Positions 2,025-4,642 of a DNA stretch of 4,642 nucleotides are shown one piece after another; the first letter of the stretch is position 1, and every line of letters starts with the position of its first letter. The position numbers and the translations under genes are program-made. The notes beneath the pieces were generated by a model. That model made no database searches and had not been told where the DNA came from. It saw nothing but the letters and a program-made list of their open reading frames with translations. The stretch comes from a virus. Its lineage: Duplodnaviria; Heunggongvirae; Uroviricota; Caudoviricetes. Where the stretch lies: the IMG/VR virus record IMGVR_UViG_2667527959_000005; one strand, 5' to 3'.

Positions 2025-2645
2025 ATGAACAGACCACACCCACCAGCGCATTTTACGATGCCACCTGACCCGAAGCCGTACATCAGCATTATGCCCGCTA
2101 ATGACGTTGGCGAGTGGCTGAATAAGCACATCCTGAGCGATGAGGGTGACCTCTACAACCCTGACCACCAGCATTTGCTTGAAGCGGATCTGTGCTTTCT
2201 CTGGGCGTCGAACGCTTTCGAGAAGAAAGGGCGTTCCGTGCTGGGGCAGGCGGAAGAAGTGGCAATGCGTGCCGGAGGCTGGCAGAAAGCGCGGATGGAG
2301 CAGCAGATGTATGAATGGTTCGGCAGGGTGCCGCAGTTCATCATCACGCTGGCCGCTGATTACTGCTCGCAATGTTCCGATCTGGAATTCTGTGCGCTGA
2401 TAGAGCACGAGCTTTATCACATCTGCCAGGCGACAGATGAATTTGGCGCGCCGAAGTTCACGCAGGAAGGGCAGCCAAAGCTGAAGCTGCGCGGCCATGA
2501 CGTGGAAGAGTTTGTGGGCGTGGTTCGCCGTTACGGTGCGAGCCGGGACGTGCAGGAAATGATTGATGCGGCGAATCAGCCAGCGGAGGTTGCTCATCTC
2601 GATATTGCCAGAGCGTGCGGGACGTGCATGCTGCGACTGGCTTAA
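2025..2645 (+). CDS. HExxH-motif protein, putative zinc metallopeptidase-like phage protein of unknown function
   Basis: 206-aa ORF co-oriented with the late operon. HELYH at residues 128-132 (nt 2406-2420) is preceded by CSQC (residues 114-117) and a further Cys at 123, with CGTC near the C-terminus (residues 198-201). The N-terminus is proline-rich (MNRPHPPAHFTMPPDPKP). Only weak Shine-Dalgarno candidates (GGGA 2015-2018, GGAG 2007-2010). Family assignment is from motifs only. Confidence 0.7.
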   Translation: MNRPHPPAHFTMPPDPKPYISIMPANDVGEWLNKHILSDEGDLYNPDHQHLLEADLCFLWASNAFEKKGRSVLGQAEEVAMRAGGWQKARMEQQMYEWFGRVPQFIITLAADYCSQCSDLEFCALIEHELYHICQATDEFGAPKFTQEGQPKLKLRGHDVEEFVGVVRRYGASRDVQEMIDAANQPAEVAHLDIARACGTCMLRLA

Positions 2646-2676: not shown

Positions 2677-3150
2677 ATGGCTGCATTAAAACCTGATGTG
2701 AAAGCCTTCATCATTCAGTCGCTTGCGTGCTATGACACGCCATCGCAGGTGGTCGAGGCTGTCCAAAAAGAATTCGGGATCAAGATCACCCGCCAGCAGG
2801 CTGAATCTCACGACCCCACGAAGGCCAGCGGTAAGACGCTCGCCAAAAAGTGGATCGAGATGTTCCACGCGACGCGCGAACGGTTCCTGACCGAAACCAG
2901 CGACATTCCGATCGCGAACAAATCCTATCGCCTCCGCGTGCTTGACCGCATGGCAACCAAAACCGAGGGGATGAAAAACTTCTCCCTGACGGCGCAGCTG
3001 ATTGAACAGGCCGCGAAAGAGGTTGGCGACGCTTACACCAATAAGCTGAAGGTTGAAAGCACTGGCAAGGATGGCGGCCCGATCAAGACCGAGACGACCA
3101 ACCTCACCGCAGATCAGGCCGCAGAGATTTACCGCAAGATGATGGGGTGA
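2677..3150 (+). CDS. Terminase small subunit (TerS), P22/Sf6-like headful type
   Basis: 157-aa ORF immediately upstream of the large terminase (stop 3148-3150, TerL ATG 3153), with GGTGA Shine-Dalgarno before ATG 2677. The C-terminal segment [17 protein letters not shown] resembles the conserved GKDGG-x-I-x-x-ET tail of Sf6/P22-family small terminases as I recall them. The N-terminal region is plausibly a helix-turn-helix DNA-binding domain. Confidence 0.8.
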
Positions 3151-3152
3151 TC

Positions 3153-4642
3153 ATGCCTCTCCCGTTTGAATTCGATTTCAGAAACCCTGATTACCAGATG
3201 GTTTTTGAATGGCGGATGGAGCGCTTACAGCGCATTCGCCAGAACCCTGAAATGCTGCCAGCGCTAAAGCAGTTTTACCGCACCAACCCGGCACAGTTCA
3301 TCATCGACTGGGGTATGACTACTGACCCGCGTAACATCGATTATGGCCTGCCGGTCACCATCCCTTTTCTGCTGTTCCCGAAACAGGAAGAGTGGATTCA
3401 CTGGATCATGGAGCGGCGCGAACGACTGGAGAACGGCATCACCGAAAAGAGCCGCGAAATGGGGCTCAGCTGGACGGCGATCGGGCTGGCCTGTTCGCTC
3501 TGCCTCTTCAACAAAGAAATGGTTATCGGTTTCGGCTCCCGTAAAGAGGAATACGTCGACAGCACCGGTGACCCGAAGGCGCTGTTCTGGAAGGCGCGCA
3601 AGTTCGTGGAAACGCTGCCCGTCGAGTTTCGCGGTTCGTGGGACGAGAAGAAGCACGCGCCGTACATGCGCGTTGAGTTTCCCGATACTGGCGCGGTTAT
3701 CAAAGGCGAGGCTGGCGACAATATCGGACGTGGTGACCGTACCACGCTCTACCTGGTGGATGAAGCTGCATTCCTCCAGCGTCCTCTGTTGATTGATGCG
3801 GCGCTGTCGCAAACCACCCGTTGCCGTATTGACCTGAGCTCGGTTAATGGCATGGCGAACCCGTTCGCGCAGAAGCGCCACGGCGGAAAGATACCAGTAT
3901 TCACGTTCCACTGGCGGGATGACCCGCGCAAGGATGAAGAGTGGTATCGCAGGGAATGCGAGAAAATCGACAATCCGGTGGTGGTGGCGCAGGAACTTGA
4001 CCTGAACTACAGCGCATCTGCGGAAGGCGTCCTGATCCCGTCCGACTGGGTACAGGCTGCCGTCGACGCGCATATCAAACTTGGTATTCAGCCAACGGGC
4101 AAGCGACTTGGCGCGATGGACGTCGCCGACGAAGGCCGGGACAAAAATGCCTTTTCGACCCGTCACGGCTTCCTTCTGGAGAACGTGCGTGAATGGTCCG
4201 GCGTGGGCAGCGACATTTACCAGTCCGTTGAGAAGGTCTTCGGCTTTTGCGAACAGGACAACCTCGAAGAGTTTCGCTTCGACGAGGACGGCCTGGGTGC
4301 TGGCGTTCGCGGCGATGCGCGCGCCATCAACGAACTGCGTAACGCTGCGCGCCGACCGTCAATACTCGCCACACCGTTTCGTGGTAGCGGCGCGGTATTT
4401 GATCCGGACGATGAAGCGGTGCGCGGGGACAACGGACAGGCCGCACGCCTGAACAAGGACTTCTTCGCCAACGCCAAGGCCCAGAGCTGGTGGTGGCTAC
4501 GCAAGCTTTTCCAGAACACCTATCGCGCCGTGGTTGAGGGCATGGCCTACAATCCGGACGAAATCATCTCAATCAGCAGCGCTATGGCGAGCAAAGACAA
4601 ACTCATCATCGAGCTGTCGCAGCCGACCTACTCCATTAACGG
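3153..4642 (+). CDS. Terminase large subunit (TerL), N-terminal ~496 codons; 3' end beyond window
   Basis: Open frame from ATG 3153 to the window end with no stop, which is why it is missing from the ORF track. Deviant Walker A KSREMGLS (residues 99-106, nt 3447-3470) and Walker B LYLVDE (nt 3747-3764). The downstream region ([14 protein letters not shown] ... [10 protein letters not shown] ... [17 protein letters not shown]) is recognisably similar to the nuclease domain of Sf6/P22-type large terminases. Translationally coupled to the upstream TerS. Confidence 0.95.

Follow-up and report, generated by a model that had tools for sequence, protein, structure and literature searches.

In HK97-like phages, a gene for an HNH endonuclease lies next to the terminase. 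Two zinc enzymes of a quite different class, the zincins, are known to hold their own active sites in check: the C-terminus of proabylysin binds the protein's own zinc and blocks the cleft (PMC5557861), and Wss1 is kept latent by a cysteine switch (PMC4559962). Here we describe a gene that may bring these two themes together. It lies in a 4,642-nucleotide stretch of DNA (the window) from the tailed-phage record IMGVR_UViG_2667527959_000005 (IMG/VR; Caudoviricetes), at 2025–2645 (stop codon 2643–2645), and encodes a 206-residue member of PF18894, the 'putative phage metallopeptidase' family (hereafter MP). All coordinates are those of the window, and all features described in it are on the + strand. 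We propose, with a probability of about 0.5, that MP is a late-expressed zinc hydrolase, probably a peptidase, that works with the packaging module, building on its family membership, its invariant H-E-H-H residues, a confidently modelled zincin fold, its position in the late operon and its linkage to the adjoining DUF2280 gene. The parts of this proposal differ in strength. That MP is a zinc-binding zincin hydrolase is very likely; that it cleaves peptides is the better bet, with considerable room for doubt; and that it takes part in packaging is a tentative suggestion, with clearly less than an even chance.

MP is clearly a full-length PF18894 member by sequence. Its residues 30–184 align with positions 2–134 of the 134-position profile (E 1.8e-43; 148.2 bits, cutoff 23.7), and the same profile is matched by all 134 relatives in our alignment (A1). 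As a discovery MP was already known: proteins 98–99% identical to it are present in NCBI and UniRef under the name putative metallopeptidase, and the family is both catalogued and named. It is also widespread. A word-indexed search found homologues in 3501 clusters at 90% identity, an exhaustive search among representatives at 50% identity yielded 899 relatives (E <= 0.001), and the gene occurs in 145 sequenced phage records (Acinetobacter, Pseudomonas, Klebsiella, Vibrio, Burkholderia and others). In the literature searched, we found no experimental or functional study of the PF18894 family, including under COG4900, DUF2280 or the combination of terminase and metallopeptidase, and no description of a third ligand, of His/Cys pairs, of DUF2280 linkage or of forms fused to a helix-turn-helix (HTH) domain. 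None of the NCBIfam models matched MP, and the PADLOC models gave only a chance-level match (E 0.013, spanning 30 residues). MP has an acidic pI of 5.2, against a median of 5.55 in its family, and a hydrophobic stretch of membrane-helix length is absent.

The HExxH motif of MP (H128-E129-L-Y-H132; 2406–2420) lies at the C-terminal end of a predicted helix (residues 119–131). Alone, the motif is weak evidence, because a single HExxH would arise by chance in about 3% of proteins with 9 His and 17 Glu (a hand estimate); it is conservation in relatives that decides. For this, 473 distinct sequences, comprising homologues and translations from related loci, were reduced to 178 non-redundant relatives at 70% identity, reaching down to 36% identity to MP. 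H128 and E129 are present in all 178 and H132 in 177, and the alignment thereby argues that the HExxH of MP is not a chance motif. A preliminary description of this DNA, made from its letters alone, had pointed out CSQC, C123, HELYH, DEF and CGTC in the 2025–2645 reading frame, where they are indeed found, and had offered three interpretations: an unusual zincin, a peptidase-like fold that binds rather than cleaves, or a Cys-based zinc ribbon beside a chance HExxH. It would have given up the peptidase idea had the HExxH residues varied among homologues or had the fold been unrelated to metallopeptidases; the residues are conserved, and the fold, as described below, compares with zincins. The invariant HExxH and the zincin fold together support the unusual zincin. 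Binding without cleavage is disfavoured, the catalytic-base residue E129 being invariant along with the metal ligands. The ribbon interpretation does not survive the alignment, where an invariant HExxH stands beside CSQC cysteines that only some lineages have.

The third metal ligand most likely lies well downstream of this motif. H158, 26 residues after H132, is the only other invariant metal-binding residue downstream of HExxH (177 of 178 relatives) and sits in the segment G157-H158-D159-V-E161-E162-F163 (2493–2513), directly before a predicted helix (164–170); the residues around it are also conserved (D159 in 169, E161 in 171, E162 in 143 and F163 in 160 of 178). Gluzincin-type enzymes have their third ligand at a comparable place, on the helix after HExxH. 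The pattern of conservation makes H158 the most likely third zinc ligand of MP. The preliminary description had considered this ligand unclear, with only acidic residues (D138-E-F; 2436–2444) following HELYH. It was right that HExxHxxGxxH is absent (H132 is followed by I-C-Q-A-T-D, with Q135 at +3) and that the metzincin ligand at +6 is missing, and it overlooked H158, as it did two other conserved features, the pair H48 and H50 and an N-terminal M-x-R-P-x-P-P motif. The position six residues after the second His provides a ligand in metzincins, Asp-zincins and Wss1 (PMC5557861). In MP this position is D138, which is conserved in 144 of 178 relatives (81%), and D138 was rejected as third ligand with Asp-zincin or WLM spacing on account of this incomplete conservation and of the missing Gly at +3. 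For similar reasons MP fits neither the metzincins, having Gln at +3 (Q in 94 of 131 relatives) and Asp rather than His at +6, nor the Asp-zincins (HExxHxxGxxD, including the DUF1025/Acel_2062 mini-zincins), as the Gly at +3 is absent and the Asp at +6 is not invariant.

The AlphaFold2 (AF2) model of MP is of high confidence (pLDDT 93.6, pTM 0.88), falling off in the tail to a mean pLDDT of 72 for residues 191–200 and 47 for residues 201–206. It places the conserved HExxH on an alpha-helix and shows the elements of a zincin fold, namely a mixed beta-sheet, a backing helix and an active-site helix. Sequence searches of the PDB with MP alone and with the 134-sequence profile found no solved relative, a Foldseek search of the model against the PDB gave nothing at E <= 0.001, and in BFVD only two other 'putative phage metallopeptidase' models were matched, at 17% identity. 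Structural comparison placed projannalysin (score 7.8) and selecase (7.1) at the head of the matches, followed by the SprT domain of Spartan (6.7), proabylysin (6.4), the M48 enzyme BepA (6.2), the mini-zincin Acel_2062 (5.9), YbeY (5.8), the M56 protein BlaR1 (5.6) and Wss1 (5.4), below which further zincins dominate. YbeY carries an HxxxH-type motif without the general-base Glu. Since zincins dominate these matches over about 90 residues (by estimate roughly 56–170), the modelled fold of MP is that of a minimal zincin core, to which the family adds about 55 residues of its own at the N-terminus and 35 at the C-terminus.

These family-specific parts carry conserved motifs of their own. The M-x-R-P-x-P-P motif opens the protein (2025–2045; P4 in 167, P6 in 168 and P7 in 159 of 178 relatives), the segment N45-P-D-H48-Q-H50-L follows at 2157–2177 (H48 in 175, H50 in 173 and N45 in 159), and C198-G-T-C201 lies near the C-terminus (2616–2627; C198 in 176, G199 in 173 and C201 in 157, with 12 of the relatives without this last Cys showing a gap there, probably as truncated sequences). 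We applied mean-field direct-coupling analysis (DCA) to the 473 sequences (Neff 214; about 20,000 pairs) and trusted its top ranks because the top contacts agree with the strands and helices of the AF2 model, for example T146-K152, G74-L109 and F58-I107. N45 and D47 are coupled to E127 and Y131 in the HExxH helix and to G165, R169 and Y170 in the helix after H158 (ranks 10–23), R3 is coupled to D119 (rank 20) and G157 (rank 69), and in the tail A190 and A197 are coupled to L120, G41 and W31 (ranks 41–52; A197-G41 42, A197-W31 52). Judged by these couplings, the HxH segment and the two ends of the protein seem to come together next to the catalytic helices. This arrangement can be read in two ways: H48, H50, C198 and C201 may form a second, His2Cys2 zinc site that pins the tail, or a tail cysteine may cap the catalytic zinc. 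The blocking C-terminus of proabylysin and the cysteine switch of Wss1, both among the nearest structural relatives of MP, are precedents. The remaining cluster, C114-S-Q-C117-x5-C123 (2364–2393; CSQC at 2364–2375, C123 at 2391–2393), is of a different kind. C114 is present in 35 of 178 relatives (20%) and C117 in 58 (33%), the two occur independently with no co-variation, and C123 is found in 139. The alignment marks the CSQC cluster as a lineage-specific feature, not a conserved metal site, and a zinc ribbon built on it was rejected for want of conserved cysteines. Of the cysteines singled out in the preliminary description, the conserved ones are those of the C-terminal CGTC and not those of CSQC.

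The second line of evidence, and the most informative of the new results, is the genetic setting. The window belongs to a lambdoid enterobacterial prophage, of which it forms the late region, with every gene on the + strand, and MP stands between the lysis genes (holin, endolysin and Rz/LysC) and those of the terminase. A 31-nt spacer (2646–2676) separates it from a gene for a DUF2280 protein (2677–3150; 157 residues, pI 9.1; PF10045, E 5e-50), which is labelled 'terminase small subunit' in some phage records and which we presume to be the small terminase. The large terminase gene (TerL; 3153–4642) comes next and runs past the window end; matching records name it TerL or terminase large subunit, and the portion in the window has no Pfam match at E <= 0.01. 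We examined 243 related loci, from viral contigs, GTDB genomes, metagenomes and GenBank phages, whose sequence continues for 650 nt or more downstream of MP. A DUF2280 gene follows in the same orientation in 234 of them when up to 700 nt are allowed, and in 211 the distance is no more than 60 nt. The order MP, DUF2280, TerL, portal is found in Pectobacterium phage ZF40, Acinetobacter phage AM106, Pseudomonas phages Marin and Medea1, Vibrio phage PP270 and Burkholderia phage Bups phi1, and also in a Rhizobium phage with one gene between MP and DUF2280. In the phage collection, where DUF2280 is present in 328 records, the counts of MP and DUF2280 records nearly match genus by genus, at 62/62 in Acinetobacter, 44/44 in Pseudomonas, 8/8 in Vibrio, 7/7 in Burkholderia and 8/9 in Klebsiella. 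The two genes travel together in phages of Proteobacteria. Furthermore, in pairwise identity profiles the module begins at the MP start codon and stops close to where DUF2280 does, and TerL is often swapped for an unrelated type while MP-DUF2280 stays. No MP-DUF2280 gene fusion, which would have argued for a shared function, was found among about 250 loci, and the divergent PF18894 queries P0268, P0215 and P0156 gave no match in viral contigs.

A conserved partner on the upstream side was looked for and rejected, as the upstream genes vary and include homing endonucleases. Homing-type endonuclease genes (HNH_3 with NUMOD4; GIY-YIG) adjoin MP in some phages (L003 4588–5139, L166 5490–5984 and L002 3553–4020). 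In Pseudomonas phage Medea1 and its relatives, phages of P. syringae, the gene directly upstream of MP (L171, 3065–3544) is labelled 'proteasome subunit beta', a doubtful label given a Pfam Proteasome match of 21.6 bits, against a cutoff of 22.4, over 48 residues.

The junction between the two genes has a feature of its own. Of 164 distinct 45-mers upstream of DUF2280 starts, 60 contain an 8-mer direct repeat (at least 7/8 matches, period 9–12), compared with 4.7 expected from shuffled sequences and 9.4 from random 45-mers of the same loci. Among the 60, 57 have a period of 10 or 11 nt, and in 33 the second copy stops 12–13 nt short of the ATG, the commonest position. The repeated sequence varies by lineage and the two copies change together: CCTGGAC or CCCCTGAC is present twice in some, GCTGTACG twice in Acinetobacter AM106 and ACCTTTAC twice in L166, and a Rhizobium phage has CTTGATGG/CTTGATAG, agreeing at 7/8 positions. 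In the spacer of the window the repeat is weak, at 5/9 (ATACTGGAC / GTATAAGAC). Three loci (L012, L053 and L059) are 98–100% identical to the window except in a patch corresponding to 2601–2840 (65–90% identity), which runs from the last ~15 codons of MP across the spacer repeat into DUF2280, taking in ~55 codons at its start, and which changes the MP protein only by R204K. The patch looks like a swapped specificity cassette, and the repeat looks like a binding site for the N-terminal domain of DUF2280, which could serve packaging recognition (pac/cos) or act as an autoregulatory operator. The repeat offers an alternative reason for the MP-DUF2280 synteny and is not evidence about the MP protein itself. 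Both the tight DUF2280 linkage and the direct repeat upstream of DUF2280 appear to be undescribed.

A further connection comes from longer relatives. At least 19 of the 134 A1 sequences are 250–330 residues long and carry an N-terminal HTH domain ahead of the core, among them P0130, P0131, P0133 and P0151; the extension of P0131 matches HTH_Tnp_1 with 24.6 bits (cutoff 24.1) and HTH_8 with 22.7 (cutoff 22). A second, different helical type of N-terminus is present in P0156, P0189 and P0139. In the HTH-fused relatives the core starts at RPxPP with no Met before it, and the possibility that they are mis-called starts was rejected on this ground and because the extensions are real HTH domains. 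DUF2280 is still downstream in the HTH-fused loci L185, L186 and L191. By their domain make-up, the HTH-fused forms tie the PF18894 family to DNA; the MP of the window has no HTH domain (Pfam, E <= 5). Members of the family bear the label 'transposase' in phrog_513, ZF40 gp39, phiPSA1, VBM1 and JBD44, a label that probably goes back to the relatives with an HTH_Tnp_1 match in their N-terminal extension. For MP itself the label was rejected: PF18894 is its sole Pfam match at E <= 5, with no transposase or HTH domain.

Together, these observations support a model in which MP would be a soluble, cytoplasmic hydrolase of the minimal zincin type, expressed late. One zinc would be bound by H128 and H132 of the active-site helix and by H158 of GHDxEEF at the start of the next helix, with E129 acting as the general base that activates the zinc-bound water. 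RPxPP, H48-x-H50 and the C198-G-x-C201 tail would pack beside the catalytic helices, where they probably form either a second metal site of the His2Cys2 type or a regulatory tail that controls entry to the active site. Inherited with the DUF2280 gene as one module, as the linkage shows, MP may act at the start of packaging, where it would cut either the small subunit of the terminase or a protein sitting on the packaging site. A bolder form of this model, which we regard as unlikely as it stands, would give the terminase systems of the DUF2280 type a third part devoted to them, the PF18894 protein. As a zinc protease brought to DNA, depending on the phage, by DUF2280 or through an HTH domain of its own, it would have to cut a packaging-site protein (the small terminase or a DNA-bound host protein) before packaging, and its His/Cys termini would keep it latent until then.

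Several points weigh against the proposal that MP is a zinc hydrolase cooperating with the packaging module. Its zinc binding and its catalysis are inferred, as is its substrate, and the third ligand could be E161 or E162 in place of H158. The low pI of MP and its family disfavours direct DNA binding of the SprT/Wss1 type, and the nearest solved relatives, the minigluzincins, had no detectable peptidase activity as purified (PMC3890501). The linkage, too, has its exceptions. In 181 Salinibacter phage records DUF2280 is present with no detectable MP match; in the only one inspected, Salinibacter phage 4_20 (L172), a hydrophobic 172-residue protein with no PF18894 match lies upstream of DUF2280, and the DUF2280 of Salinibacter ruber phages, at 33% identity, again precedes the terminase. 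DUF2280 therefore does not require MP and can work without it. Likewise, the three loci with the swapped patch keep an MP 98–100% identical to that of the window beside a different DUF2280 N-terminus, so MP needs no co-adaptation with that part of DUF2280. The linkage could merely reflect a packaging recognition site at the MP/DUF2280 junction, and MP could be an active zinc peptidase with a job unrelated to packaging, for example in host takeover or counter-defence, held in place by a terminase recognition site at or in its 3' end. We consider this rather unlikely, although it accounts well for a position-fixed repeat just upstream of DUF2280 that varies with the DUF2280 N-terminus, for a swapped patch that spans the MP 3' end, the spacer and ~55 DUF2280 codons and leaves the MP protein unchanged beyond R204K, for the Salinibacter phages and for the tolerance of MP to different TerL types. 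It does not explain why the whole MP gene, and not only its 3' end, is co-inherited, with a sharp left boundary at the start codon, or why MP is kept upstream despite a gene inserted before DUF2280 in the Rhizobium phage and several metagenome loci. MP also has no match to known defence or anti-defence models, and the HTH fusion suggests action on or at DNA.

That same fusion would suit a DNA-acting enzyme, and a zincin fold need not serve proteolysis: MP could be a metal-dependent nuclease or another hydrolase, as YbeY is, or it could serve the packaging complex as a binding or scaffold subunit that does no catalysis. Other phages, with the HNH gene of HK97-like phages as an example, have an accessory nuclease at the place of the MP gene. 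The lack of measurable peptidase activity in the closest solved relatives (PMC3890501) is likewise in line with this alternative, which nevertheless seems improbable in view of a peptidase signature, H-E-x-x-H, whose general-base Glu, missing from YbeY, is invariant in 178 of 178 relatives, and of peptidases as the top structural matches; moreover, the homing-type HNH and GIY-YIG nucleases occur beside MP, not in its place. Hardly credible is a protein that is neither, being a Cys zinc ribbon (CSQC...C with CGTC) beside a chance HExxH, or a transposase as PHROG 513 labels it. The 4–5 cysteines in CxxC-like spacing and the five 'transposase' labels noted above are what speak for it. They are outweighed by the low, uncorrelated conservation of C114 and C117 next to an invariant HExxH, by a Pfam search with no transposase or HTH match, and by the zincin fold. 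The proposal of a late zinc hydrolase, probably a peptidase, acting with the packaging module remains the one we prefer.

Upstream of MP lie the lysis genes of the window. A holin gene (482–805; Pfam Phage_holin_3_1) is followed by an endolysin gene (789–1265) and an Rz-like gene (1249–1641), which is overlapped by a frame for a lipoprotein of the LysC/Rz1 type (1490–1804; PF23793, E 5e-18; lipobox LSGC). The latter starts inside the Rz-like gene in a different frame and extends beyond its stop codon, and the spanin arrangement is of the overlapped, not the embedded, type. Between the lysis cassette and MP there is a 61-codon open reading frame (1785–1970; phrog_12811, no Pfam match), which is not conserved next to MP in other phages. 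A GC-rich hairpin (1971–2007; core AGAAGCCCUUCACUGAGGGGCUUC) lies between this frame and the MP start, at precisely the point where the MP-DUF2280 module has its left mosaic boundary; it has a predicted stability of -21.3 kcal/mol (z -3.8; 0 of 200 shuffles equally stable) and no T-run. A consensus scan found neither a promoter nor an intrinsic terminator around the MP gene. At least 80% of the window is contained in 7 complete E. coli genomes at 92.6–97.7% identity, in which MP is the RefSeq 'putative metallopeptidase', and Citrobacter phage Omnitron has an MP homologue at 99% protein identity.

For a family this widespread and with no functional study found, the DUF2280 linkage and the HTH-fused forms provide a packaging hypothesis that can be tested, with E129, H158, H48, H50, C198 and C201 as candidate functional residues. 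The interest of MP lies in this packaging link, in its candidate ligand set and in the repeat element upstream of DUF2280. If the hypothesis is true, the terminase accessories would gain a new type of member, a protease that acts in phage DNA packaging.

Among known systems, the minigluzincins (MEROPS M95: proabylysin and projannalysin; selecase) are closest to MP in structure. They share no sequence similarity with it, even when a profile is used; they are archaeal and of ~105–110 residues, compared with 206 in MP; only ~90 residues align; and they lack the conserved His and Cys found in the N- and C-terminal parts of MP. Wss1 offers parallels, with a three-His zinc site (PMC5557861) as proposed here for MP and a cysteine-switch latency (PMC4559962) that resembles our idea for the MP tail. 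SprT, Spartan and Wss1 are all associated with DNA, an association that in the MP family comes through the HTH-fused relatives and the adjoining DNA-packaging gene; MP itself, unlike SprT and Wss1, is an acidic protein in which no DNA-binding region can be recognised. Weak, sub-threshold matches to the SprT-like Pfam family (PF10263) are seen in 6 of the 134 relatives (best E 0.012), and MP has no SprT-like or WLM match (none to SprT-like at E <= 5). SprT-like proteins usually carry a C-terminal Cys4 zinc ribbon, whereas MP has only one conserved CxxC, and the WLM/Wss1 spacing HExxHx5H is not present in MP, where +6 is an Asp conserved at 81%. The M48 and M56 zincins (BepA, HtpX, Ste24 and BlaR1) are integral-membrane proteins, whereas MP is soluble, has no membrane segment and does not match them in sequence. 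Finally, the HNH gene of HK97-like phages is, like MP, a small enzyme gene fixed beside the terminase, with a different fold and a different chemistry, HNH there and zincin here.

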